Part shown: piece by piece, positions 9,591 through 49,747 of the stretch
Layout of the letters: every line of letters begins with the position of its first letter
Numbering within the stretch: position 1 is the stretch's first letter
Source of the DNA: Candidatus Omnitrophota bacterium
Lineage (GTDB): Bacteria; Omnitrophota; Gorgyraeia; Zapsychrales; Fredricksoniimonadaceae
DNA: 64,000 nucleotides
Assembly (NCBI GenBank): GCA_903860135.1
Contig: CAIOPG010000011.1
Span: 320 to 64,319, forward strand
Direction: 5' to 3'
Notes under the pieces: model-generated
Database searches by the model: none
What the model saw: the letters and a program-made list of their open reading frames with translations, nothing else
Told to the model about the DNA's origin: nothing
Position numbers and translations under genes: made by a program

Positions 9591-11219
9591 TCACGGAGAA
9601 CTCCGCGCGAATCGCGCACCATAATAAATGCCTGCCGTGGCATCACGTCTTTGTTTAAATCCTGAACTGTCAGGGTCTTTGACAGCATACGTTCTGGCAG
9701 ATATCTGGAAATTCCTGATATTGGCTGTTTGAAAATCACCGCCGCGATACCCGATACCGATGGTTTTGTTAACCCCGCAGCGCGCATCGCTCATATCTAT
9801 GCCAGGCCAATCAACATTGGTCGCATTGCCTTCATGCCCAGAAAAACTGGAGAGTTCACCATCGCCGTGTGTCCCCAAAAACTGCCGGCCTTCTGCGCGG
9901 CCTATCGTGACCACAGGCTCTGCCAGATTACCTGAAAGTTCCATATTCCCGTAGTAACCGGCGCCGCTCGTCGTGCGTGAGGTGGAACTTTCAGCAAATA
10001 TCCCCGCGCGCAAAGGGCCTTTTTGCCCTTCAGCAATGCCGCCAGCACGGCCATCGCCAGACGTCCATCCCAGGGCATTGCGGTTTAAATTCACAGCACC
10101 GTCAAAAAGTGCTTCCGTACCATTCTCGTCGTCATTTGCAGGAAAAATCTGGGCGGCTTCCGCCGCATTATAACTTGTAGTTCCCCAAGCAAATTCATCA
10201 GCGACAGGATTCACGTCGACGCCTCGCGCGGCTTTTTCAAATTCAAGTTCTGTCATCGGACGTAACCCAGCCCAGTCTGCATAAGCCGCCGCATCAGGCC
10301 AGGAAACATAACTCATCGCACGGGCCGGTCTTGTCGTGATCGCTGCCTTTGAAGGAAAAAGAGGATCCCATGCCATGGTATTGCGATCAACGACACGGGT
10401 AGAATTCTTGCCCCCCTCGACAGCGGATGTTATATCCCTGGAATGTTTGGCCGCTATTGACAATGTATTAAAGAAAGCCACCCATTCGCCTTCTGTCAAT
10501 TCATACTTCATCAAATAAAAAGACTTGTACCCTTTGGGGAATGAGTTCGGCAGTAAAAAGATACTGCCTGAATTATTTTCACCGGAAGCACCTGTTGAAT
10601 CATAATAAAATCCGCCAGAAGGCGTGCTTGTCGTGGTAATGGCATTTTCACTGGAAACATACCAAGGGCTATCATCCGCTGTCCCTTTTTTAAAACGGAA
10701 GGGTGATGCGCTGGCTCCATCGCCTGCAAAGAATGCCCCTTCGGGAATATAAACCATTTCAATCCCAAAAACTTTAGTCAATGTATTGGCCGCCATAGCT
10801 GTATCGTCAGAAAGACCATCTTGGGCATAATTCCAAACAAAATGAACCCCATTGGCTTGTACATATCCTGCCGCTATATCCGTTCTGCGAAGAAAAAAAC
10901 CTTTCAAATCCTGAGGAACAAAAACCTCAACACATTGCGGAGCAATAAATCCAGCTGGATTCAAACCCGCCCCCCCCATGCTGGCATGATGCCAAGTTTG
11001 GCCTGCATCTGTTGAATACTTCATGAATATCCATGCCGCGTCATGTGACAATATTGTCCGCCAGCTGTTATTCTGCTGGATATCAACAGTAAAAGTCATC
11101 CGATGAGCAGATGATTCATTTTTATAAAGGTCAAAATGATTTAAAACAAGATTATTAGCAAAAGCAGGGATCGTGCACGAAAGGATTACAAAAACGATAA
11201 GAACAATTTTTTTTAACAT
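9591..11219 (-). CDS. Secreted protein with C-terminal FGE-sulfatase (formylglycine-generating enzyme / SUMF1-like, GldK/PorK-type) domain
   Basis: N-terminal signal peptide MLKKIVLIVFVILSCTIPAFA. Motifs WPDAAAYADWAGLRPMTELEFEKAARG, GYYGNMELSGN and YRGGDF match the FGE-domain signature. Confidence 0.7.
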   Translation of the reverse strand: MLKKIVLIVFVILSCTIPAFANNLVLNHFDLYKNESSAHRMTFTVDIQQNNSWRTILSHDAAWIFMKYSTDAGQTWHHASMGGAGLNPAGFIAPQCVEVFVPQDLKGFFLRRTDIAAGYVQANGVHFVWNYAQDGLSDDTAMAANTLTKVFGIEMVYIPEGAFFAGDGASASPFRFKKGTADDSPWYVSSENAITTTSTPSGGFYYDSTGASGENNSGSIFLLPNSFPKGYKSFYLMKYELTEGEWVAFFNTLSIAAKHSRDITSAVEGGKNSTRVVDRNTMAWDPLFPSKAAITTRPARAMSYVSWPDAAAYADWAGLRPMTELEFEKAARGVDVNPVADEFAWGTTSYNAAEAAQIFPANDDENGTEALFDGAVNLNRNALGWTSGDGRAGGIAEGQKGPLRAGIFAESSTSRTTSGAGYYGNMELSGNLAEPVVTIGRAEGRQFLGTHGDGELSSFSGHEGNATNVDWPGIDMSDARCGVNKTIGIGYRGGDFQTANIRNFQISARTYAVKDPDSSGFKQRRDATAGIYYGARFARSSP

Positions 11220-36162: not shown

Positions 36163-38331
36163 ATGACGGCACTTATGCATTTTGAAGACCTTCTTGTCCG
36201 ACACAATTTCCCTCCGGCTTACCGGCAAGCCCTGCTGGCCGGAGGCATCACCATGCTCCATCCGCCCCAGGCCGATGCCATCCACGCCGGGGTGCTTAAC
36301 GGCACCAATGTCATCCTGGCTGTGCCCACGGCCTCGGGGAAAACGCTGATCGCGGAACTCGCGATACTGAAAGCCATCTTTGAAAAAGGCGGCCGATGCC
36401 TGTATATCGCCCCTCTTAAAGCCCTGGCCAGCGAAAAATACCGCGACTTCAAAAAAAAATACGAACCGCTCGGGATCAAGGTCGGCATCGCCATCGGCGA
36501 TCTTGATTCACCCTCGGCTTATCTGAAAGATTACCAGATCATCATCGCCACCGCCGAAAAGATGGACTCGCTCCTGCGCGCGCGTTCCCCCTGGCTTTCC
36601 AACGGGATCGCCGTCACGGTATTCGATGAGGTCCATGTCATCAATGATGCCAGCCGCGGGCCGACCCTCGAAATTCTTATTACACGCATCCGGCTGATGA
36701 ACCCGGAAATGCAGGTGCTGGCGCTGTCGGCCACCGTCGCCAATGCCCGGGAAATGGCTGACTGGCTGAACGCGAAAGCCGTGATCAGCTCCTGGCGGCC
36801 CATCCCCCTCCATGAAGGTATTTATTACAACAAGCGCCTGACCTATGAAAGCGGGCGCATCAAGATCCTCCATGAAGACGCACCCGATGAAACACAACAG
36901 CTGGTCATGGACACCTTGCGCGGCCAGGGGCAGGTGCTGGTCTTTGTCAATGCCCGGCGTTCCACGCAGTCTGTCGCCCGTGAGCTGTGCCGCTGGGTCG
37001 GGCCTTTGCTCACGCCCGAAGAAAAAGACATCCTGAAAACAGTTGCCAGCGACATCGCACCGGAAACATCCGCCACCAAAGTCTGTAAAAAACTGGCCGA
37101 AGTTGTCGTCCACGGGGTGGCCTTCCACCACGCAGGGCTCAAGCCGGACCAGCGCGAAGCCATTGAGGAAAATTTCAAAAAAAACATCATCAAGGTCATT
37201 TGCTGTACACCAACGCTGGCCGCCGGCGTCAACCTCCCGGCTCGCCGCGCCATTATCCGTGATACCAAGCGCTATGTTTCCGGCGCCGGCTCTGTCTTCA
37301 TCGCGGCATCGGAATACAAGCAGTGCGCCGGCCGCGCAGGCCGCCCGCAATACGATGAATACGGTGAAGCTGTCCTGATCGCCAAATCGCTTTCGGAACA
37401 GGATGCCCTGTTTGACCGCTTTATTCTGGCGCCGCCCGAACCGGTCATCTCCAAACTTTCCGACGAAGCCCAGTTGAGGCGTCACGTTCTGGCCTCGGTG
37501 GCCGGCGGGTATGTCCATGATGTCAACGGCATGTTTGAATTCCTTGAACACACCTTCCTCGCCCATCAGCATAAAGGCGCGAACCTGATCGAACTTGTGG
37601 GCGGCATCTTTGATTTTCTGCACCGGGAACAATTCATCGACAAAAGCGGTTTTAGGTTCTTCCCGACGCCCTTTGGCGCCCGGGTCAGCCGCCTGTACAT
37701 CGACCCTGTTTCGGCTTTAGTGTTAAAGAAAGGCCTGGCCCGCATTGCCGCCGGAACCAATTTCTCGTCGATCGGCATCTTGCACCTTATCTGCTCGTGC
37801 CCGGACAGCGAACGCCTGTCCGTCGGCAAGAAAGGCCTGGAAGAACTTGAAGATTTCGGTAACAAGGTGGCCGATGAGCTGGTCATGACCCGTGAAGATA
37901 TCCAGTCCCTGCAGGATTATTACACATCGCTTGGCGTGCTTAAAACCGTCTGGATGCTGTTACGCTGGATGGATGAAGAAAAAGAAGAAGCTGTTTGCGA
38001 GCGCTTCGACATCGGGCCAGGCGACATTTTCCGCCACACCGAATCCGCCCAATGGCTCGTCTACGCCGCGCAATCGATCGCTGAAGTTTATCAGTTCAAG
38101 AAACTGACCCATTTTCTGGAAGGCTTAAAGAACCGCGTGCGCTACGGCATCAAGGCAGAACTGCTCGAACTCGCCGGGCTCAAAGGTATCGGCCGCATCC
38201 GCGCCCGCGTCCTTTTCGACCACGGCTACCAGACCCGCGCCGATTTCAAGAACGCCACCGAAACCGACCTCGCCCCCATCAAAACCATCGGCCCGGCGCT
38301 GGCGAAGGATATTTTGCGGCAGGTGGGATGA
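36163..38331 (+). CDS. Hel308/Ski2-type superfamily 2 DNA helicase (DEVH box, C-terminal HhH)
   Basis: Walker [15 protein letters not shown] ([10 protein letters not shown]), motif [15 protein letters not shown]-terminal [13 protein letters not shown] HhH. The track start 36136 is an alternative (TTG). The ATG at 36163 has an SD. Confidence 0.8.
38116..38155 (+). repeat. Left copy of an imperfect direct repeat (attL-like) inside the helicase 3' coding region
   Basis: ctggaag(gcttaaag)aaccgcgtgcgCtacggcatcaagg matches 48190-48221 except for an 8-nt indel and 1 mismatch. Confidence 0.7.
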
Positions 38332-38386
38332 TGTTCGACCTACGAAGACCAATACTTCATATTCCCATGACTCAAATGACGTAGTA

Positions 38387-38415
38387 TTGACATTGTGAAC
38401 TTTAAATAGTATCTT
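38387..38415 (+). promoter_or_regulatory. Candidate promoter of brnTA (-35 TTGACA 38387-38392, 17-nt spacer, -10 TATCTT 38410-38415)
   Basis: Read directly, 7 nt upstream of the brnT ATG region. Confidence 0.4.
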
Positions 38416-38421
38416 AACTTT

Positions 38422-38706
38422 ATGCTTTATAAATGGGACATTGATAAGAATGCCTGGCTTAAAGAACATCGAAACGTTTCTTTCGAAGAAATCATTGGGT
38501 GTATCGCAGACCAGAAGATTATCGACGTGATCGAGCATCACAATCAACGAAAATATGCCCATCAAAAGATCATGGTTGTGGCATTAAACGGATACGCTTT
38601 TCATGTCCCATACGTTGAAGATCACGAAGGAAGTTGTTTTCTTAAAACAATAATACCAAGTCGAAAATCAACCAGAAAATATTTGGAGCATACTTATGAA
38701 ACTTGA
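38422..38706 (+). CDS. brnT: BrnT-family (DUF497) ribonuclease toxin
   Basis: 94 aa. WDIDKN...N..KH.VSFEEI family pattern. Overlaps the downstream antitoxin gene by 11 nt. Confidence 0.7.
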   Translation: MLYKWDIDKNAWLKEHRNVSFEEIIGCIADQKIIDVIEHHNQRKYAHQKIMVVALNGYAFHVPYVEDHEGSCFLKTIIPSRKSTRKYLEHTYET

Positions 38707-38971
38707 TAAAGAAGAACAGGCATTATTAAATTCTATTGAGAACAAAGAATGGATGCGGATTAAGAATTTTGAAAGCGAATCAAAAAAGTTACAACAGACC
38801 GCTATCAAAACCCTACGCAAAGATCAACGCATCAGCATTCGCTTAGCCAAGTATGATCTTGATGGGCTCAAGATGAAAGCCGTCGATGAAGGCATTCCCT
38901 ACCAGACAATTATTGCCAGTCTTATTCATAAATACATCACTGGCCGGATCGGCACGAAGATAGTTGCCTAA
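38696..38971 (+). CDS. brnA: BrnA-family antitoxin
   Basis: 91 aa. ISIRL...DLDGLKMKAVDEGIPYQTIIASLIHKY typical of BrnA (RHH-like C-terminus). Toxin-first order as in brnTA. Confidence 0.65.
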   Translation: MKLDKEEQALLNSIENKEWMRIKNFESESKKLQQTAIKTLRKDQRISIRLAKYDLDGLKMKAVDEGIPYQTIIASLIHKYITGRIGTKIVA

Positions 38972-39112
38972 CTTCCTGATTGCCCCACCACTGCCTTGAC
39001 ATCATTATCATGCACGTTCCTCGAACTCATGCCTTTGCCATGGCCATGGACACCGGGTGCCCAGGATCAGAAGTACAAATGCAAGGAAAATGAGCATCTT
39101 GTATCTTCTATA

Positions 39113-39256
39113 AACCCGGATTTTGCAATAGCCAAAGAATTTGTGTCGCAAGCTATTAAAATTAAATGAGTTGTACTATTACAATGCAATAGAAACTGTA
39201 CAATTTAGTGCATTGGGTTTCAGTCGGTATTTTGAGTCTTATTGCAAAATCCGGGA
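39113..39256. repeat. 16-bp perfect inverted repeat (cccggattttgcaata) flanking ~110 bp of AT-rich non-coding DNA. Possible MITE-like element or structured RNA
   Basis: Arms at ~39113-39129 and ~39241-39256, between convergent brnA and the DUF262-HNH gene. Confidence 0.5.
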
Positions 39257-39275
39257 TAAATGTTACCAAATTCTT

Positions 39276-40445
39276 TCACCGATTTCCTTTTGCACGATTA
39301 TGCGACTTGCATAACATCTGACAATTCTTGATATTTGTCCCACCACCCTTGCTCCATGCGGCGACATGGTCAGCGTCCATTTCAGCCAACTTCCAAGACT
39401 TGCTCTTGTTAGCATCATGCCCAAGGGCACAAAGGGGACAGTTTGACGCACCTTTTGCTTCAGCTTTTTTAGTCTGTGATTCAAAAATGGATCTCTTTGT
39501 TGCATCATCAAAAACTCGAACATCCAGCAATTTCGTATCCGTCGAACCGCCAAGGATGTACTCAAAAACACCTTTTCGATTTTTGACATAAGGATCACTG
39601 TGTAACTTTTTTACCTCGTCTGATACCTTGGCTGGACTATACGCCGTTGCGTGATACTCTTCATACAATCGTCCCCACTCAAGCCCGCGCATCTCGCTTG
39701 CAACATCGATAAAGACACTGGAAACCCATTCGATCACGCTGTTGAAATACCTTTTAAGTTCGTTGATATCTGTGTCACGGCGATGCCGACACATATAATC
39801 GCCAATATTACCCTTACTAACCCAATCCAGCGCACATTCCAGAAATTCCTGCCGATTGGCACTACCAGAAATATACGAGCTCCATTTTTGGATATTGGCA
39901 TTTTGACTATTACTAAATTCTTCCTTACCAAGTGTAACAAATGACCCTGAATACACGGCGTTGAGTCGTTCTTGAGCATTGAGTGGGACGCCGACAATAT
40001 TAATTGTTTCGAACCACTCTTTTATCTCACTTTCCGTCCCTTCACATTCATAAATAAGCAGCTTTGTTTCCAATAGCCTATCTTTCTTATCTTTTGCCAT
40101 ACCACTAAAATACTGTGGCATACCGCTTTCATCTGTAATGGCAAATTTCCCCGTCACAAATCGTCCAAGACTGGTAATGCGCTGTTGCCCGTCTAAGACT
40201 TCCAGTTTACTATCGTTGACTTTATTGAAATAAATCAATCCTATAGGGTACCCCTTGAGGACTGATGCGATGACAGCCATTTCTTTCCTGCCGCCGTCAG
40301 AAACATAAATGTAGTTACGCTGATACTCTGGTTGGATAGTCAATTTACCAGATAAGCCGAATAGACCCTTGCCTTCAAGTTCGTTATAAACAAAACCTTC
40401 GCAAATATCTCTAACAGTAATACTCGTCTTAAGCGTTGCTTCCAT
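39276..40445 (-). CDS. DUF262 (ParB-like/GmrSD N-terminal) - HNH nuclease fusion protein
   Basis: N-terminal DGQQRITSL motif (DUF262 DGQQR). C-terminal CPLC...[35 protein letters not shown] motif. ATG overlaps the methyltransferase stop by 17 nt. Confidence 0.75.
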
Positions 40446-41634
40446 AATTCTTCCTATGTCTTATAAGTACTCTTTGATAAACTTTCTCCATTAATCCGTT
40501 TTGAATAATCACCCCACTCGCATTCAAATCATATGTTCCCTTTTTCCCAAATTTATCTAGATATGCCGTCTTGCATTCTACAGTTGAATATTTTTTACTT
40601 TTTAAATTATAAAGATCTTCATTCTCACACATACCCAGTATCTCAAATTGATCAGGATTATACTTGTCCAGAAAACTAATCGGCACTCCCATTACGCCGT
40701 CATAATCACTCGGGATAGAATCGGTAAACGATACTTCTATAGCATCATAATTATCGTATTTATCATACTTTCTTTTGCCGTTGATTTCTTTATGTTTACT
40801 GTGTTTTAGATTTTCCTTCATTGTCATTAGCGGTAGCGGTTTATGACGCCGCCCGTGGTCGAGATTAGTGAACCAACAAACACCCGGAACACGATTTACT
40901 TTTACGCCATTTCGTTCTCGTTCAAATTTATACGTATCATTATAAACAAAATCACTAGAAACTTGGAAATACATGCCTGTGTTAAAATTCGTTGCACCAA
41001 GCCACAATTTATTTTCCTTAATTTCTGGGAAAACATCTTTGTAAGTAATCGCATTCATATTGCCAATAATGACGAACTTCTTATTGTACTCAAAAAGTTG
41101 TTTAACATACTGCCGAAACAGGCTGAATGGTGGATTTGTTACGACAATATCTGATTGTTTAAGCAAATTTATACATTCATCACAGCGAAAGTCGCCATCA
41201 CCTTTTAGCGGCGTCCATTCGTTGTTTTTGTTTGCCTTTAACTGCCTGGCAACATCCTTCAAGTTAAACTCGCCATCACCATCGATGTCGTGCGCCTCGT
41301 TAATAATAAACTTGTTGGCGGTTACCTTGGGACGACCTTTTGATTTTGTGAAAGTTTCGTCACCAAACAATTCCAGCTGTGTATTAGCCACGGGCGAGGG
41401 TTTGTAGCTGGTGGTGATAAGCTGTTTTAGCCCAAGCTTATTAAAATTTAGCACGAAATAACGAAAAAAATTGCTTTCGAACGGATCATCACAATTGCAA
41501 TACACTACCTTGTCGCGAAATGTATCGGGGTCGTACTCCAAATACGCTTCCATCTCCTTCTGAATATCGCCGTACTGAGTATAAAACTCGTCATTCTTGG
41601 CCCTTTTCGCACTTGTAAGATTATCGTTTGCCAT
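40429..41634 (-). CDS. EcoRI-family N6-adenine DNA methyltransferase
   Basis: N-terminal [18 protein letters not shown]...VVYCNCDDP resembles the M.EcoRI N-terminus. NPPF catalytic motif ([10 protein letters not shown]). Confidence 0.7.
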
Positions 41635-41728
41635 ATTGTTTCCTGTTATTGAATCAGTTTCTCATATTCTCTGTGCGTCCCAATCCAAAACCAAACAGTA
41701 TCTCCTCATTAACTCGATGTTAAAATCT

Positions 41729-41762
41729 AGTATAACATTTCACGAATTAACTCCCCCCCCCC
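41729..41762 (-). promoter_or_regulatory. Putative mod-operon promoter region: poly-G(10) tract (plus-strand poly-C 41753-41762) 18 nt upstream of a TATACT -10 box (41734-41729), ~95-125 nt upstream of the methyltransferase ATG
   Basis: Homopolymer cccccccccc read directly. The tract occupies the -35 position relative to the TATACT box. Confidence 0.35.
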
Positions 41763-41774
41763 ACACACATCCTC

Positions 41775-43136
41775 CTACGTCGGAAGAATATAACTAAATC
41801 CATCTTTCCCCAGCCGCGCGGTCAACTTGTCGATGATGGCCTGTGGATCATCCTCTGGCCCTGCCATAAATAACGGCTTGCCGTCGGGGCCGCCGAATTT
41901 AAACACGCGTTCCTTGCAGTCTTCGTCTTTCTCACCCAGCACATGCCGCGCCACCTCAAAATCAGGGTGCGGATCAAATCCCAGATTTTGCGCGTACGCC
42001 ACCGCCTGGTTCACCAGCCGCTGGGCACATCCGATGCAGAAATCATCCATAACCCCTGGATAATGCATCACCATGACGTCGATCTGTTTCCGGGTAAGTC
42101 CCGCTCCATAAGACGCTTGCTTGACGCCAAGACATTGCAAATCAATCAAATACACGCCAAAAATATAATGCGACGCACCCATCGCCCTTATCACCATAAC
42201 AGTCGCAAAAGCCCGCTCTTCCCAATCCTCATTAACAAGCACGTACCGCAACGGGTATTTTTCTGAAGCCTTGACTGCCTCCTTTATTTCCTGTTCTGTC
42301 AGATCCAGAGGAACCGGCGTCCGGACAGCGTCATCTTTGGCCATGCAACATTTCTTATATTTCTTGCCGCTACCACAATAGCAGGGCTCATTCCGGCCGA
42401 TCTTGGTTTTTGGTTCAGGCACTTCATCGTGATCGCCAGGACGCAGGCTTCTGCGCGGATATGTTCGCTTGGCTTTTACACCCAAAGCGATTTCCACATC
42501 CTCCAGATCACCCTGCACAGAGCAATCAACCTTGTCATACGCGAATGCTTCACGTATACAGTCGAGCGATTCCAGTGCGTTCAATCCTGTCAATCCATCG
42601 ATCAGGAATGCATTCAATGTCGAATCATTGATGAAAAAATACTTTAATTCATCTGTCAGGATCGTTACACAGCGATCTCTGACAGAACCACCTTCCTTAC
42701 CAATCAGACAAAGACTGCTCTCCGCCGCTACCCGCGCGAATAACCCGTTCCGGCGATCTTTCAAATACAAGGACAGACCCTCGATGGCACCAGCCCCGAT
42801 CATGGCCATAACCTCCGGCAATTCCTCGCCCACCCAATCGTCATCCTCCTCGTCGATCCGCCGCAATAAAGACAGCAATGCCCCGACAGCGTCAACGGCT
42901 TTCAGCTGTCCCAGCGCCCGCCACCCGTGCACCGATGCCCAGATAGTCAACGTATCACGCCCGCCTGAATGCAGGCGTTCATCCTCGATCATCCTGATCA
43001 GTTCAGGAACATGCTGTTCCCCCAGCCCCAGGCTTAAATAATCCGGCCATTCATCACCCAATTCACATTCCCCATAAACAAGTAATTGATCTACCGGACT
43101 GGCATACGCCGTATCAGCTGTCTCTTCACGCATCAA
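41775..43136 (-). CDS. SEC-C motif (zinc-binding) domain protein, 453 aa, function unknown
   Basis: Central EPCYCGSGKKYKKCC SEC-C motif. AGGGGG SD before the ATG. Confidence 0.55.
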   Translation of the reverse strand: MMREETADTAYASPVDQLLVYGECELGDEWPDYLSLGLGEQHVPELIRMIEDERLHSGGRDTLTIWASVHGWRALGQLKAVDAVGALLSLLRRIDEEDDDWVGEELPEVMAMIGAGAIEGLSLYLKDRRNGLFARVAAESSLCLIGKEGGSVRDRCVTILTDELKYFFINDSTLNAFLIDGLTGLNALESLDCIREAFAYDKVDCSVQGDLEDVEIALGVKAKRTYPRRSLRPGDHDEVPEPKTKIGRNEPCYCGSGKKYKKCCMAKDDAVRTPVPLDLTEQEIKEAVKASEKYPLRYVLVNEDWEERAFATVMVIRAMGASHYIFGVYLIDLQCLGVKQASYGAGLTRKQIDVMVMHYPGVMDDFCIGCAQRLVNQAVAYAQNLGFDPHPDFEVARHVLGEKDEDCKERVFKFGGPDGKPLFMAGPEDDPQAIIDKLTARLGKDGFSYILPT

Positions 43137-43183
43137 AGCCCCCCTGGTTTTAAAATTTGCGGAGATTCAATCGCATTCTGCAT

Positions 43184-43209
43184 CTCATTTGGCAAACACG
43201 TGTTTACAT
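43184..43209. promoter_or_regulatory. Palindrome cluster upstream of the SEC-C gene: AAACACGTGTTT (12-bp perfect) followed by ACATGT and GTCGAC
   Basis: Read directly in the 43137-43411 intergenic region. Confidence 0.3.
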
Positions 43210-43411
43210 GTGTCGACATCCCGACCTTTTAGACTTTTTTATCAAACAGCCATCAATTTATACGTATCGCCGAAATTGACATTCCACCATGTGAATGCAG
43301 GCGGCATCCGTGATATACGCCGACGTATAAATGACCGGATGATGCGGATCCAGCTGATGCACTTCCTGGATCAGTTTCTCTAAAAACCAACAAAAGCCTA
43401 CCCGCTCCTTT

Positions 43412-43645
43412 TCATTCTTTCCCCGCCCACGCGCCTTTAATGTAGTACGGCTTGCCATTGACCATCAACACCCATTGCCCCTTGTCACCGGCGACTTTAA
43501 CAATATTGCCGGCGTGTTTTTCCTGGGCAAAGATGGGATTTGAAATAATGGTAGATACTGCGAGATTGATGATGATTGCCAGTATCAGGAGGGATTTTGA
43601 CATAATGGCCTCTTTCTTAATATAGCCTTGTTTTCTCAAAATCAT
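43412..43645 (-). CDS. Small secreted hypothetical protein (77 aa)
   Basis: Signal-peptide-like MSKSLLILAIIINLAVSTIISNPIFA, then a short beta-rich mature part. Could be spurious. Confidence 0.3.
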   Translation of the reverse strand: MILRKQGYIKKEAIMSKSLLILAIIINLAVSTIISNPIFAQEKHAGNIVKVAGDKGQWVLMVNGKPYYIKGAWAGKE

Positions 43646-43776
43646 CTACATCCCATTCAACGATACACATGCTCCGCAATGACCTCGCCGTTCTCATCAT
43701 AAAAATTTCCGTCAGCTGCCATCATAATGAAGCTCTGATACTTTTGCGCCACTTTTGAAAAAACCAGCGCCGCCCC

Positions 43777-44652
43777 TCAACCCAATTCAAGTCGATCAAA
43801 GCGTTCAATCAGGATTTTATCAAAGTTTTTAGCGAGATCATGAGGAAGCCGGGATGCCTTGATCTTTTTGCGGAAATTTTCTTTCTGCCCGATAAAACGC
43901 GCCAAGCGTACTTTCTCAGGAACGCCTAGATTGTCAGCCAAAAGGTCGATCTCTTTTCTTCGGATATTGCTCTTGCGACCCTGGATGGTCAATGCTGACT
44001 CATCAGCCTCGTTCGGTAAAACAATCCTGGAACACACCAGATCATACGCAGGAGCAAGTCGGACATGACCTTCCTCGTCGTAAATGACCGAGTAATTCTT
44101 CATGTGCGCATCGCCGTTGGCAACAAGAAAGTTATAAACAATACGCTCAAAAAAAAGCTGTGTATCCAGCCCCGGGACTTCGGAAACAGCTTTCAATTTC
44201 CGCCCGATCTCCTCGACCGAACCGTCATATTTATTTTCTTTCCCAAGGATCTGCGCAAAATCTTCCTGATGGATCTTACGGCGTCCTTCCCGGTCAAAAC
44301 GCTTAACCACATACGCCAGACTCTTATCCTTCAAAGGCACCAGGCAATGCACAGGCACATCAATCCCAATATCTCCGGCAATATTCATGCAGAGTTCTTC
44401 ATTCTCCGGCAAATTCGCGAATGCTTGCACTTGCGGCTTCAAAATATACTGACCTCCCTCGCCAGCAACTTCAAGGCGAGGCTCACTATCTTTATCCGCA
44501 AGCCGGACTGAAAGCTTGGGCTGAACGCCGGAAATAGACATCTTCCCGACCATCTCCTGGGCTTTCAGAGAAACCCCGGCTAGCGTCAGATCAATGAACG
44601 GCTCACGATCGACACCAAAAACTTCTCGCCATATTGATCGCTCATGCTTCAT
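43777..44652 (-). CDS. hipT: HipT-like HipA-family Ser/Thr kinase toxin (kinase core only, lacking the HipA N-domain)
   Basis: SGVQPKLS, VKRFDR and LVANGDAHMKNYS (HipA catalytic GDxHxKN) motifs. 291 aa. Confidence 0.75.
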   Translation of the reverse strand: MKHERSIWREVFGVDREPFIDLTLAGVSLKAQEMVGKMSISGVQPKLSVRLADKDSEPRLEVAGEGGQYILKPQVQAFANLPENEELCMNIAGDIGIDVPVHCLVPLKDKSLAYVVKRFDREGRRKIHQEDFAQILGKENKYDGSVEEIGRKLKAVSEVPGLDTQLFFERIVYNFLVANGDAHMKNYSVIYDEEGHVRLAPAYDLVCSRIVLPNEADESALTIQGRKSNIRRKEIDLLADNLGVPEKVRLARFIGQKENFRKKIKASRLPHDLAKNFDKILIERFDRLELG

Positions 44653-44981
44653 ACAGCCCCGCTTTCTTTCACGGTAACAGCACCGATCGTATTCTTCCCT
44701 GTCACCAATAATATTCCGAATTCATCAGCCGGATCGATCTTCCTTGTCGCACAGACGATATCCCGATACCAACCCTCAGCGTTCATTCCCGCAAAGAAAG
44801 AAAATAATACCGCCGACTCAAAAGGCTCTGCCTGCAACGGCAAAGACAAAGAGACCGGTTTACCCGTCTTTAAATAATCAGCCCCATATACAAACCTGTA
44901 CCCGTCACCTGTTTCTTCCAGGATACCGGCCAGCTGATCATGAAGGAACACATCTGCTTTACGCTTCCTAACCCTTATCAT
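44649..44981 (-). CDS. hipS: HipS-like protein (stand-alone HipA N-terminal domain)
   Basis: VFLHDQLAGILEE...YRFVYGADYL resembles the HipA N-terminal domain. Likely start Met at 44981 (track start 45065 overlaps hipB). 4-nt overlap with hipT. Confidence 0.6.
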   Translation of the reverse strand: MIRVRKRKADVFLHDQLAGILEETGDGYRFVYGADYLKTGKPVSLSLPLQAEPFESAVLFSFFAGMNAEGWYRDIVCATRKIDPADEFGILLVTGKNTIGAVTVKESGAV

Positions 44982-45171
44982 TGCGCATAACCTCAAGATG
45001 ATGCCCCAAAAAATCCAGAACCTGATTGACCTTATCCAGGCGCACCGTAGCCTTGCCCTGCTCAAGCTCTCTCAGAAAACGAAGACCAACACCAGCACGC
45101 CGTGCAAACTCAACCTGGTCAAGGCCAGCCTTCTTCCGAAGTCCCTGTATTATTTTTCCGATGTCTTTCAT
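44968..45171 (-). CDS. hipB: HipB-like XRE-family HTH antitoxin of the tripartite system
   Basis: MKDIGKIIQGLRKKAGLDQVEFARRAGVGLRFLRELEQGK HTH. ATG at 45171 preferred over the TTG at 45276 because two operator-like dyads lie just upstream. Confidence 0.6.
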   Translation of the reverse strand: MKDIGKIIQGLRKKAGLDQVEFARRAGVGLRFLRELEQGKATVRLDKVNQVLDFLGHHLEVMRNDKG

Positions 45172-45180
45172 GATTAAAAT

Positions 45181-45272
45181 ATACACCCTGAAGGGTATAA
45201 AAGCAAGGCGCGTTGTTCGAGATATGGAGAATTTGGAAGATAAAAATGATTTATATACCCTTTCGGGTGTAT
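45181..45272 (-). promoter_or_regulatory. Two operator-like imperfect dyads upstream of hipBST: ATACACCC-tgaa-GGGTATA (45181-45199) and ATACCC-tttc-GGGTGTAT (45255-45272)
   Basis: Both share the half-site ATAC(A)CCC, spaced ~75 bp apart, 10-100 nt upstream of the hipB-like ATG. Confidence 0.45.
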
Positions 45273-45307
45273 TCAACTATTGTTTAAAGACAATATTTTC
45301 TGCCCTC

Positions 45308-45595
45308 TCACGTCGGGCGGAATATCTTTAATTTAATATCAGGGATCATTCGGAAATGTTTTTCATTGCCGGAAACAAGCAGAAGGTCATTCTCTGCCGC
45401 CGTTGCGGCGATGATGGCGTCCCCCGCCGTTAACCCATGCGACAACGCATATTGCTCCATATAAATCATGGCTCTGTGACCAATATTTTCAGTAATAGAA
45501 AGAACTGAAAAATGATACACGCTCAAGAACGACTTGCAAGAAGCCAATTGTTGTATGAACGTGTGGAGCGAGGTGGCGGCTATGTGACTATACAT
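45308..45595 (-). pseudogene. Remnant of a PIN-domain (VapC-like) toxin gene. Only the C-terminal part is present
   Basis: C-terminal PIN-like LTAGDAIIAATAAENDLLLVSGNEKHF. No N-terminal catalytic Asp region and no cognate antitoxin. Confidence 0.45.
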
Positions 45596-45627
45596 ATTTA
45601 TATATGCGTATACGGTATAAATACATC

Positions 45628-45680
45628 ACAACACATATTTATTCATGTGTTGTTGACATTAACTATATTCATGGTATCCT
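45628..45680 (+). promoter_or_regulatory. hipBA promoter/operator: 9-bp perfect dyad ACAACACAT-N8-ATGTGTTGT (45628-45653) overlapping -35 TTGACA (45653-45658). 16-nt spacer. Extended -10 TGgTATCCT (45672-45680)
   Basis: Read directly. Lies ~170 nt upstream of the hipB ATG with an AAGGAG SD. Confidence 0.5.
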
Positions 45681-45849
45681 TTTGATAGAAAGAAGCCGAA
45701 CATGTTTAGCCTATGTCTTTTTTCGCCGGCCTTACCGCGCCACTCTTTCGGCTTCTCTCGGGGGATAAACCCCCTCGTTCCAGGCGAAAAAGCACTCGGT
45801 GCTCGGCGCGGCGAACGCGCAAACCGCTAAATATGCACAAGGAGCCAGT

Positions 45850-46170
45850 ATGGATTTTTTATTTGCAGGCGACAGGGATATCCTTAAAGAATTAGGATCC
45901 CGTGTCCGTCGTGCACGACTTGAAATGAACATATCCCAGTTAAAGTTTGCTTTGCAAGCCGGCGTTGCCATTGGCGTTGTTCAGAACTTTGAAGCCGGGA
46001 AGGCCTGCTCCCTCAAAAGTTTTATCCGAATGCTCAGGGTCACGCACAACCTGGCCAATCTTGCCTTACTGGTCCCTGAACCACTTCCAAGCCCTATTGA
46101 AGTAGCAAAAATGTCCGGAAAACAGCGACGTCGCGCCGGAGCTGCCAAAATAAATAAGGATAATCTATGA
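45850..46170 (+). CDS. hipB: HipB antitoxin (XRE-family HTH)
   Basis: ATG at 45850 preceded by AAGGAG. HTH LEMNISQLKFALQAGVAIGVVQNFEAGK. 4-nt overlap with hipA. Confidence 0.7.
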   Translation: MDFLFAGDRDILKELGSRVRRARLEMNISQLKFALQAGVAIGVVQNFEAGKACSLKSFIRMLRVTHNLANLALLVPEPLPSPIEVAKMSGKQRRRAGAAKINKDNL

Positions 46171-47498
46171 GCCCGGCAAATAAAGCCATTGATCAGGCCA
46201 ATGTATTTCTTTGGGGGGCACCAGTCGGGACGGTCATATGGGACAAAAACAGGGACCTTGGCATTTTTCAGTATGACAAGTCATTCGTAAGCAAAGGACT
46301 GCAGATCTCCCCGCTCTTGATGCCGCTTAGTGTTGATACGAAGTATTCGTTCCCGGCATTGGACAGGGTAACCTATTATGGCCTTCCGCCACTCCTGGCC
46401 GATGCGCTACCTGACAGATTTGGCAACGCTCTTATTGATATTTGGCTTCGGGATCAAGGAAGAGAGTTAAATTCTTTTTCTCCCGTTGAGCGACTTTGTT
46501 ATATGGGACAGCGCGCTATGGGCGCACTTGAATTCCGCCCGGCTACGGCACGGGTCTTGGATGAATCTATTAAGATCTCCATTGATGAAATGAGCGCACT
46601 TGCTCAAAAAATTCTTACTAAAAAGGCGCAACTGTCGGTGAATAGAAACAAGGACAGCGCCATGGCCATCCGATCCATTATTGAAATCGGCACCTCGGCC
46701 GGCGGCAACAGGGCAAAAGCTGTCATCGCCTGGAATAAAGAGACTGGGGAAATCCGTTCTGGTCAAGCAGATGCCTCAACAGATTTTGAACATTGGATCA
46801 TTAAATTCGATAATGCCAGTGAAAAGATATTGGGTGATCCGCATGATTATGGGCGCGTGGAACACGCTTACTACAATATGGCCATTGCGGCCGGGATTAA
46901 TATGAGCCCCTGTCATTTGTGGGAAGAAAACGACCAAGCGCATTTTATGACGCGCAGATTCGACAGGGGGAAAAGTGGCCAGCGACTCCACATGCAGTCC
47001 CTCTGTGCCTTGGCAGGGTATGACTTCAATCAGATCGGCAAATATCATTACGAAGAAGTTTTTGGAATCATTCAGAAGTTGCGACTTTGGCATCAAGCAA
47101 TCCAGGAGCAATACCGTCGCATGGTGTTTAATGTGATGGCACGGTGCCAAGATGATCATACAAAGAATATATCATTCCTGATGACCCCGGAAGGGAAGTG
47201 GGATCTATCCCCTGCTTATGATAACGCCTGGTCGTATAGTCCCAGGGGGCTTTGGACTGGTCAGCATCAAATGCGGGTCAATGGCAAGCGAGATGAGTTT
47301 ACCGTGCAGGATTTGATAGAAGCTGGGAAATCTTATGAGATTAGTAAAGCGAAGAATATGTGTGAACAAGTTGGCGATGCCGTAGCCCGTTGGTCAACAT
47401 TTTCCAGGCAATCAGGTGTTTCCAAGGAAATGACTCACCGCATTGCAAAAACACACAGGAAAGAACTGTTTATAAAAAGAAAATCTGGTTTAAAATAA
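46167..47498 (+). CDS. hipA: HipA Ser/Thr kinase toxin (full length)
   Basis: 443 aa. HipA N-domain plus kinase core (GAQLKF-like region, DDHTKNISF catalytic loop). Confidence 0.85.
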   Translation: MSPANKAIDQANVFLWGAPVGTVIWDKNRDLGIFQYDKSFVSKGLQISPLLMPLSVDTKYSFPALDRVTYYGLPPLLADALPDRFGNALIDIWLRDQGRELNSFSPVERLCYMGQRAMGALEFRPATARVLDESIKISIDEMSALAQKILTKKAQLSVNRNKDSAMAIRSIIEIGTSAGGNRAKAVIAWNKETGEIRSGQADASTDFEHWIIKFDNASEKILGDPHDYGRVEHAYYNMAIAAGINMSPCHLWEENDQAHFMTRRFDRGKSGQRLHMQSLCALAGYDFNQIGKYHYEEVFGIIQKLRLWHQAIQEQYRRMVFNVMARCQDDHTKNISFLMTPEGKWDLSPAYDNAWSYSPRGLWTGQHQMRVNGKRDEFTVQDLIEAGKSYEISKAKNMCEQVGDAVARWSTFSRQSGVSKEMTHRIAKTHRKELFIKRKSGLK

Positions 47499-47679
47499 CA
47501 TAAAACAATGGGCTTTTTCCAAGAATCAATACTGCGTTCAATATATACAGGGCCATTATTTGCCACATCAATCTCTAAATTCAAGAATAAACGCCGACTC
47601 TTATGGCAATTATTTGAACTTCAATGAGAACTTATCAATGGGGGAATGTTAAATTTCTCTGACCAGACATCACTCACAA

Positions 47680-48183
47680 CTATTTGCGCGCAACAGCAGG
47701 AAGGCCCAATAAACTACGCAGATCCGAGACAGGACTGATATCAACAACCTCCGGCACAAAGCCTGGCGCGCGCATCAAACCGTCAAATGTCGTGTACTCA
47801 GGAAGTTTAAAATCAACACCTGCACCCGAAAGCGTCACATTCATATTTTTGCCTTTAAAATCGATACCACCTTCGTGGCGGGCAATTCCGGCATCATCAT
47901 GCGGAACGATCTCCCGCAATTTCTGCATCACCTCCCGCCTTACCAACTCTCGTTGCTCTAACGGAAGCAAGGCATACTCCCTCACGCTACCTGAAAAACT
48001 ATCTTGGGATATTCCCCATTCACGATCTGGATTAAACTTGCCATCATCAGATCTTCCAATTTCTTCTTTGGTTAACACATTCAACATACCAATAAAGAAA
48101 TCAAGTTGATCAAAATGCGGATTCCTTAAGACACTCTCTCGCAAAAAAATTGGGGCACATTGGTTCTTAATTGCTGGGGGCAC
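47680..48183 (-). CDS. Hypothetical protein (167 aa), GTG start abutting the right-hand direct repeat
   Basis: ORF only. No recognisable motifs. Confidence 0.3.
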   Translation of the reverse strand: MPPAIKNQCAPIFLRESVLRNPHFDQLDFFIGMLNVLTKEEIGRSDDGKFNPDREWGISQDSFSGSVREYALLPLEQRELVRREVMQKLREIVPHDDAGIARHEGGIDFKGKNMNVTLSGAGVDFKLPEYTTFDGLMRAPGFVPEVVDISPVSDLRSLLGLPAVARK

Positions 48184-48189
48184 ACAAGA

Positions 48190-48221
48190 CTGGAAGAACC
48201 GCGTGCGTTACGGCATCAAGG
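48190..48221 (+). repeat. Right copy of the direct repeat (attR-like). Helicase 3'-end remnant reading [10 protein letters not shown]...AK-stop
   Basis: ctggaagaaccgcgtgcgTtacggcatcaagg matches the helicase internal segment. Confidence 0.7.
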
Positions 48222-48478
48222 TCGCATGTTGCGACCTCGTAGCCAAATAGTGTGTCCCGATTTTCCCTTCACGCCCACAGCTCATCGAGTGCCAATACGC
48301 CAATTCTCCTTGCCCTTTATATGCAGAATACATCTTCAATTCCTGAAATATAAACGCCTCAAAACATTCTCCGTATTCCTTGGAACCAACGGCAATTTCC
48401 TTGCGGTTTTGCAGGAAGCGTGCGAGGCCGATATCAAAGAAATTTTACAATTTACAAGTTAAAGCCCGTATCGGGGTC

Positions 48479-49537
48479 TCAAATTCTTGTTTGAGCCATA
48501 AAATCTCTGAAATCTTTGGCATTGGCAATAGCCACATCATAAGTAATAATTCCCTGGCGATACAATGTTGCCAACGACCTATCCAAGCCAACCATGCCCT
48601 CCGCGCCGCCCGTCAATATAACTCCGTTCAATTGATTGGTATCCCCGTTGCGTATGACATGACGGACGGCCGAATTTGTGATCAGTATTTCCAAAGCCAG
48701 TGCTCTGCCTGTTTTATCTATACGCGGCAATAGCCGTTGCGAAATAATTCCTTGCAACACCCCCGCCAACTGCATCCTCACCCACTCTTGCTGACCTTGA
48801 GGGAACACATCAACAATTCTATCCAGTGCCACGATGGTATCGGAGGAATGGAGTGTGGCTAATACCAAATGTCCGGTTTCTGCTGCTGTCAATGCAATGC
48901 TGATCGTTTCTAAATCCCGCATTTCACCGATACATATACAATTAGGGTCTTGCCGTAAGGCTTGCCGCAATCCTTCATTAAAAGACCTTGTATCTTTTCC
49001 CACTTCCCTTTGTATGATAACCGAATTAATGGACGAATGAACGTACTCAACCGGATCTTCGATCGTTATGACGCGCGATCGGCGATCATCACGATTAATA
49101 CAGTCGATCATCGCCGTCATTGTTGTTGTCTTCCCCATGCCCGCCGCCCCTGTGATCAAGATCAAGCCATTGGGTCTTCGTGTAAGTTTCTTGACAATAA
49201 GAGGCAACCCCAACTGTTCCAAAGAAGGAATGCGTATAGGAATAATGCGAATGGCGGCTTCCACATTCCCCATTCGATAATAAACATTCATGCGAAAATA
49301 CGCCACTTTCTTCAGGTTGAAGGAAACATTCAACTCTTTATTTTGTTCAAAGTGCATAATTTGCTCTTCAACAAGACACTCGTAAATGAGTTGTTGTGTC
49401 ATATCCGAAGAAAACTTATCGTACGCCATGGTTTCTAATAAACCATTGACCCTCATGGTTGGCGGCATCCCCACCATCAGATGGACATCCGAAGCATGGT
49501 GAGATATGGCATCACATAATATTCTTTCTAATTTCAT
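48479..49537 (-). CDS. pilT: Type IV pilus retraction ATPase (PilT/PilU family)
   Basis: Walker A GAAGMGKTTT, Asp box, His box. N-terminal ASDVHLMVGMPPTMRVNG. Confidence 0.8.
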   Translation of the reverse strand: MKLERILCDAISHHASDVHLMVGMPPTMRVNGLLETMAYDKFSSDMTQQLIYECLVEEQIMHFEQNKELNVSFNLKKVAYFRMNVYYRMGNVEAAIRIIPIRIPSLEQLGLPLIVKKLTRRPNGLILITGAAGMGKTTTMTAMIDCINRDDRRSRVITIEDPVEYVHSSINSVIIQREVGKDTRSFNEGLRQALRQDPNCICIGEMRDLETISIALTAAETGHLVLATLHSSDTIVALDRIVDVFPQGQQEWVRMQLAGVLQGIISQRLLPRIDKTGRALALEILITNSAVRHVIRNGDTNQLNGVILTGGAEGMVGLDRSLATLYRQGIITYDVAIANAKDFRDFMAQTRI

Positions 49538-49747
49538 GGAAAGACCGCCTTTCTGTATCTCTTGACCCTAGTCCGTGCATTAAACATCTTTTTCCAACAC
49601 CTTGATCAACGTCCTGCCAGAAAAACCATCACATCGTTCATGAGCTTAACACTAATAATAACAGACATGAGCCAATTTGCACACTGCAATCGCTCAACAT
49701 GCCATTCAATACCTCAGCAGAAACTGGAGTGTTAAAGAAATAAGATG

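Follow-up and report, generated by a model that had tools for sequence, protein, structure and literature searches.

Upstream of a restriction-modification (RM) operon in Omnitrophota DNA lies a run of ten guanines, and its position raises the question of whether changes in the length of the run switch the operon between expression states. A first-pass annotation had placed the tract at the -35 region of the operon's promoter and described it as a candidate phase-variable switch. Here we ask what the tract, the DNA on either side of it and the related loci say about that proposal. The window refers throughout to the whole 64-kb stretch of DNA that was analyzed.

The G10 tract and its neighboring genes

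Read directly from the sequence, C10 on the plus strand, equivalent to G10 on the minus (coding) strand, occupies 41753-41762 and is the only homopolymer of at least 10 nt in the window. The plus strand at this point runs ...ACT CCCCCCCCCC ACACACA.... On the minus strand, the TAG stop codon of a SEC-C gene (41777-41775) is followed by the 12 nt GAGGATGTGTGT, the G10 tract, the 18 nt AGTTAATTCGTGAAATGT, a TATACT box (41734-41729) and, 118 nt from the tract, the ATG of a methyltransferase gene (41634). An A(TG)4 run (41763-41770, minus strand) places (TG)4 directly 5' of the tract, and the whole intergenic spacer between the two genes measures 140 nt (41635-41774, minus strand). The interval 41729-41762 that had drawn attention to the locus extends from the TATACT box through the far end of the tract. 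The ten consecutive C's and the distances of 18 nt to TATACT and 118 nt to the ATG were all as first described; the distance from the SEC-C stop codon, given as 13 nt, is 12 nt.

Several smaller features were seen in the same DNA. The sequence GAGTTAAT occurs twice in the leader (41708-41715 and 41746-41753, 38 nt apart) with one copy abutting the G10 tract, and a 5-bp palindrome, TTAAC-N5-GTTAA, lies at 41709-41723; as operator or methylation sites, both are too short to tell from chance. A plus-strand ORF of 66 aa that crosses the tract (41597-41797) had no family match and was taken as spurious. Elsewhere in the window, the second-longest G/C run is a C8 on the plus strand (G8 on the coding strand) at 10970-10977, which falls about 80 codons from the start of a 542-aa minus-strand ORF (9591-11219) and is a possible frameshift-prone site.

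Downstream of the tract, the minus strand carries an EcoRI-family N6-adenine DNA methyltransferase gene (40429-41634; 401 aa, with an NPPF motif; PF13651, E 7.8e-130; PADLOC MTase_II, 3.7e-105) and a gene for a DUF262 (GmrSD_N) and HNH nuclease (39276-40445; 389 aa; PF03235 and PF01844; PADLOC REase_II PDLC03418, E 9.3e-81, matched over profile positions 6-371 of 372). The two genes are separate, adjacent and co-oriented, with an overlap of 17 nt, and by these profile matches they are a Type II RM pair, as had been suggested from the sequence, with predicted cleavage and protection activity. Upstream of the tract lies the gene for a DUF1186/SEC-C-motif protein (41775-43136, minus strand; 452 aa from the ATG at 43133; Pfam SEC-C; GC 0.52), whose relatives carry PF06685 and PF02810 and are at most 60% identical to it. 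A BrnT/BrnA-like toxin-antitoxin pair follows the nuclease gene on the plus strand (38422-38971; gene calls with precomputed Pfam hits on contig L001). The window is chromosomal, with dnaE, guaA, hisS and recO; its DnaE is 89% identical to that of a metagenome-assembled genome (MAG) labeled Candidatus Omnitrophota, and the contigs holding the locus come from stratified-lake metagenomes.

We then compared the tract with what chance would produce. An independent-base model gave an expectation of 0.13 C/G runs of at least 10 nt per window. Under dinucleotide-preserving shuffling, the G9 pattern, scored as a 9-mer, gave a mean of 0.86 matches, and 24 of 100 shuffles contained at least two, which is the number observed. 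The G10 tract therefore exceeds chance only weakly, and the earlier argument that chance rarely maintains a tract of at least nine G's finds no support in these figures. No other such tract occurs in the 64 kb of the window or in about 85 kb of contigs from sister lineages. In approximately 1 Mb of homologous loci, about six G/C runs of at least 8 nt were found, all in gaps between evident genes; one tract per roughly 38 kb of sequence upstream of methyltransferases is close to the background rate, without cassette-specific enrichment, this background being a rough one because the six-frame ORF mask was too liberal for a clean split of coding from non-coding DNA. Tracts of ten G's are long enough for high slippage rates in several bacteria. 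Since unselected tracts of this length tend to decay, the presence of G10 could reflect either selection or a very recent origin.

The compositional seam and related cassettes

The tract lies at an abrupt change in base composition. Over the last 300 nt of the SEC-C gene GC content is 0.54, and only a few bases from the tract it drops to 0.33, the value for the 118-nt leader; it stays at 0.38-0.43 across the methyltransferase, the nuclease and the BrnT/BrnA pair, and then rises to 0.57 in a helicase gene. The resulting low-GC block spans approximately 38.33-41.75 kb and is completed by the BrnT/BrnA pair. Judged from its sequence, this block of BrnTA, RM pair and leader is probably an import, with its seam placed by composition only, as the nearest methyltransferases (82-85% identity: P0002-P0004, L083 and L084) have no upstream DNA in common with the window and the nearest SEC-C relative is 60% identical.

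Sister Omnitrophota contigs (L168, L170 and L171) carry recO, a single 902-aa gene, the helicase gene and an S30AE gene in this region; among precomputed hits, the 902-aa gene has no Pfam hit on record. In the window, the place of this one gene is taken by about 11 kb with toxin-antitoxin, RM and other genes, and we therefore regard 38.3-49.6 kb as a variable island. Its content (38300-49600) includes BrnT/BrnA, the RM pair, the DUF1186/SEC-C gene, a split module of HTH, HipA(N) and HipA(C), a full-length HipA, a PIN-like gene and a PilT-like ATPase, flanked by the helicase and S30AE genes on one side and recO on the other.

To place the operon in its family, we assembled 156 homologous loci with usable upstream sequence and scored the 250 nt upstream of each methyltransferase ATG. 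The methyltransferase family is very widespread and highly conserved, with relatives at 70-85% amino acid identity in Patescibacteria, Verrucomicrobiota, Desulfobacterota, Bacteroidota, Omnitrophota, an archaeon and Gram-positive plasmids, and also on plasmids of Enterococcus, Moraxella and lactobacilli. A DUF262-HNH homolog lies directly downstream in 114 of the 156 loci. DNA homology to about 160 cassettes reaches no more than 35 nt beyond the ATG on the upstream side and runs to about 10 nt past the nuclease stop codon, which leaves the leader, the putative promoter and the G10 tract outside the shared two-gene module. The segment at 39267-41669 is a very compact Type II RM cassette of high mobility, in which no mobility gene can be seen and homology is confined to the two genes.

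The tract itself does not recur with the cassette. The longest G/C run upstream of the ATG was 2-5 nt in 147 loci, 6 nt in six, 7 nt in one and 9 nt in two, and a conserved upstream poly-G can be rejected for this family, as 154 of the 156 loci have no G/C run longer than 7 nt. Both loci with longer runs (L149 and L150) belong to one lineage, the only other one with a run of at least 8 nt, and carry a G9 on the coding strand about 115 nt upstream of the homologous ATG, with flanks unrelated to those in the window. The G9 in L149 is part of a locally repeated intergenic element of about 130 nt, of which another copy, with G8, follows the previous gene.

Two further observations concern poly-G or poly-C sequences near such cassettes. 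The element of about 130 nt occurs at L149:1110-1300, L149:2845-3000 and L150:1650-1803, following the stop codons of two consecutive genes, a GNAT gene and an ATPase_2/DUF234 gene. Immediately after the second copy comes the EcoRI-family methyltransferase, and the element resembles a cassette-boundary or promoter/terminator repeat. Separately, C11 or C9 followed by A7, written C(9-11)AAAAAAAG, lies beside the homologous RM cassette in two unrelated MAGs (Geobacter and Elusimicrobiaceae; L017:5387-5404 and L065:2740-2755), at one site 39 nt past the nuclease stop codon and at the other 253 nt upstream of the methyltransferase ATG.

Promoter geometry and the readings of the tract

The TATACT box is preceded by TGt, making TGtTATACT (41729-41737, minus strand; 18 nt 3' of the tract) a match to the consensus of an extended -10 element and the sole candidate core promoter element in the spacer. 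The pattern TGNTATAMT occurs once in the window against 2.6 expected, and at least once in 97 of 100 shuffles. A scan with the two-hexamer consensus called no promoter at this site, which it would miss since GGGGGG is not a -35 hexamer. Extended -10 promoters function without a -35 element.

To see what a change in tract length would do, we modeled tracts from G7 to G13. From about -36 downstream to the start, all of the modeled sequences are identical. The tract always ends, on its 3' side, 18 nt before the -10 box, and its length therefore cannot change the spacing between -35 and -10. Upstream of the tract, no -35-like hexamer was found at a usable distance; the DNA there consists of the last part of the SEC-C gene with its stop codon. 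The one effect that tract length may have is opc-like, a shift of this upstream DNA relative to the -10 box.

A known RNA element or structured leader was rejected, as an Rfam search of the spacer had no match and its predicted fold was not significant (z = -0.18). No terminator-like site was found between the SEC-C and methyltransferase genes; with neither a hairpin nor a T-run, the spacer was rejected as the terminator of the SEC-C gene, and read-through from that gene into the methyltransferase gene is possible. A mini-ORF of seven codons, MCVGGGS*, starts at an ATG with AGGAGG at 41776-41771 and crosses the G10 tract. After a change of one G its peptides are 9 to 14 aa long, none of which extends into the methyltransferase ORF, whose frame is closed by a TGA 27 nt ahead of its ATG; the tract therefore affects no reading frame of the operon.

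With modest confidence, we read G10 as an incidental and possibly unstable tract at a horizontal-transfer seam, beside an imported promoter that would act independently of it. At this seam, a host-like DUF1186/SEC-C gene (GC 0.52-0.54) would meet the imported low-GC block (GC 0.33-0.43) right at the tract. Transcripts of the RM operon would start from the TGtTATACT box, come from read-through of the SEC-C gene, or both. Slippage during replication may lengthen or shorten the tract by a G, as with any G10, leaving the core promoter unaltered and the methyltransferase frame unopened, and because such changes would spare both, the tract would probably not be a dedicated expression switch.

A somewhat unlikely alternative, drawn by analogy, is slipped-strand transcriptional phase variation or 'volume control', in which tract length would alter the promoter strength of the RM operon and give rise to subpopulations of high and low restriction. 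This could come about by opc-like replacement of the -35 element, by a shift of upstream DNA relative to the -10 box or by local DNA structure. The position and nature of the tract speak in its favor: it is a coding-strand G10 of slippage-prone length, solitary in the window and in the sister contigs, and it precedes the only good -10-like box. At 118 nt from the ATG, it also passes the PhasomeIt screen, in which a repeat within 200 bp of a start codon marks a 'transcriptional' phase-variable gene (PMC5953494). RM genes are the class most often phase-variable (PMC5953494, PMC5084427), and in Neisseria, intergenic repeats accompany 57 of the 248 phase-variable genes of RM systems (PMC5953494). 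A precedent exists in the opc promoter of Neisseria meningitidis, where, according to a statement in PMC3447861 that cites Sarkari 1994, a C/G tract stands at the -35 position and the step from C11 to C12 raises expression. The G9 of the L149/L150 lineage, at nearly the same distance from a homologous ATG, points the same way.

Against this reading, the core promoter is constant across tract lengths and its extended -10 needs no -35, no -35-like hexamer stands at a usable distance upstream of the tract, 154 of 156 homologous loci lack the tract, and it is statistically unexceptional. The nature of the operon also argues against it. In a Type II system with separate methyltransferase and nuclease, turning the operon off risks self-restriction, as in post-segregational killing. 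The well-documented phase-variable RM systems are mostly of Type I, III or IIG, in which cutting depends on the methyltransferase subunit, in part because of this hazard. The fuller proposal that the tract is a working contingency element, with opc-like slippage tuning an acquired Type II RM operon in Omnitrophota and giving mixed subpopulations of high and low restriction, is in our view unlikely.

The locus was found in a 75-kb ENA scaffold (two samples), a Logan contig and a 13-kb ENA/NCBI contig. Every assembly with DNA at the locus reads G10; the 13-kb contig, for which gene coordinates are at hand, has the same 140-nt gene spacing. The retrievable copies have no mismatches to the window over up to 11.2 kb and are therefore one clone, and all are consensus sequences, which show only the commonest tract length. 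As a result, the absence of any length difference counts weakly against a switch, and the uniform G10 is uninformative, neither for nor against switching. An exact 24-mer from the leader had no match in JGI metagenome contigs or viral contigs. In exact-protein look-ups with the methyltransferase, the nuclease and the SEC-C protein, every contig recovered was 100% identical to the window. No variant tract length was seen in these searches of public sequence.

Contigs from other samples break repeatedly in this region. Two of them, L165 and L166, start at position 40850 within the methyltransferase gene, and the ends of L002 (39079), L166 (38973) and L165 (38851) all fall between the nuclease gene and BrnA. 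These recurring breaks suggest that the community has strain-level heterogeneity or shared sequence around the nuclease gene.

Overall, the switch reading rests on the position of the tract, and it gains no support, and loses some, from the tests of chance, conservation and promoter geometry. Of the earlier proposal, the geometry and the RM gene pair held up, and the tract passes the PhasomeIt screen; chance, recurrence (one other lineage among 156 loci) and promoter geometry spoke against it. The tract does stand 18 nt from TATACT, where a -35 element had been assumed, but GGGGGG is not such an element and the -10 is of the TG-extended kind. Because the inference from position fails these checks, the locus ought to be kept off lists of phase-variable genes unless reads provide evidence.

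We consider it very improbable that the tract derives from a former gene start or belongs to a leader mini-ORF (MCVGGGS*), either as the truncated 5' end of a gene displaced by insertion of the low-GC block or as a leader peptide of tract-dependent length. A perfect AGGAGG does overlap the SEC-C stop codon, with a GTG at 41764 just 6 nt downstream, and the mini-ORF spans the tract, with one G more or less making it 9 or 14 codons long instead of 7. However, the peptides are tiny and end well before the ribosome-binding region of the methyltransferase, the spacing between AGGAGG and the ATG is zero, no homolog or family was found for any part of the spacer, and the junction is unique to one clone, without a comparative counterpart. 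Finally, it is extremely improbable that G10 is a sequencing or assembly artifact, such as two-color Illumina poly-G joining unrelated contigs at the GC seam: the tract does coincide with an abrupt compositional change, but the independently built ENA scaffold and Logan contig agree on both the junction and the tract length in several samples, contigs joined at poly-G k-mers would show k G's or more rather than 10, and gene order and strand run smoothly across the seam.

Comparison with known phase-variable systems

On present evidence, the incidental tract that we favor is an ordinary bioinformatic candidate, one homopolymer by one promoter-like box. Were it a true switch, it would be a rare case of promoter-level phase variation in a classical Type II RM pair and an early indication that Omnitrophota of stratified lakes have contingency loci. 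Bet-hedging based on simple sequence repeats would then reach past host-adapted pathogens and include free-living bacteria of a candidate phylum as well as a Type II system of the classical kind. Set beside the usual description of a contingency locus, the tract is above the length of frequent slippage (about 8-9 or more for G/C) and lies less than 200 bp from a start codon in a promoter region, the promoter being a consensus match only; between G7 and G13, neither the spacing nor the sequence of the core promoter is altered.

A phasevarion consists of a Type III mod or Type I hsd gene with repeats in its reading frame, whose switching rewires a regulon. The window resembles such systems in pairing a DNA methyltransferase gene with a simple sequence repeat. 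It differs from them in that its methyltransferase is a Type II enzyme of the EcoRI family with a separate nuclease (PF13651; PADLOC Type II methyltransferase and restriction endonuclease), and in that its tract is intergenic, with the TGA upstream of the ATG and no ORF affected. The phasevarion label that had been applied to the locus does not fit on either count.

Among Type II systems, the operon is typical of cassettes that match PADLOC MTase_II and REase_II PDLC03418, with full-length matches and overlapping genes in the order M then R. Unlike the other MTase_II/REase_II cassettes examined, it has a unique upstream region, and a long G tract is shared with one other lineage.

The porA poly-G and fetA poly-C tracts of Neisseria and the TA repeats of hif in Haemophilus lie between -35 and -10, so that each repeat unit alters the spacing. 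The tract in the window is likewise intergenic and in a promoter region, and like those of porA and fetA it consists of G/C. Unlike all three, it stands upstream of the 18-nt spacer and leaves the spacing unaffected; as the sequence from about -36 downstream is constant from G7 to G13, their mechanism is inapplicable here. Tracts of the fetA kind, C(10-14), are listed as intergenic (PMC5953494).

The opc (opcA) promoter differs from the window in that variation of its tract has been shown and sets expression, whereas the tract in the window is known from sequence alone. Even a long tract is no guarantee of observable switching, since a mutS+ strain showed no change in 89 colonies (PMC3447861). 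Also unlike opc, the -10 in the window has a TG extension, the gene belongs to a Type II RM operon, and the host is from a free-living or episymbiotic Omnitrophota lineage that is apparently not rich in such repeats. What the two loci have in common is their arrangement, in which a G/C homopolymer of about 10-13 nt stands directly upstream of the -10 box in the place of a -35 hexamer.
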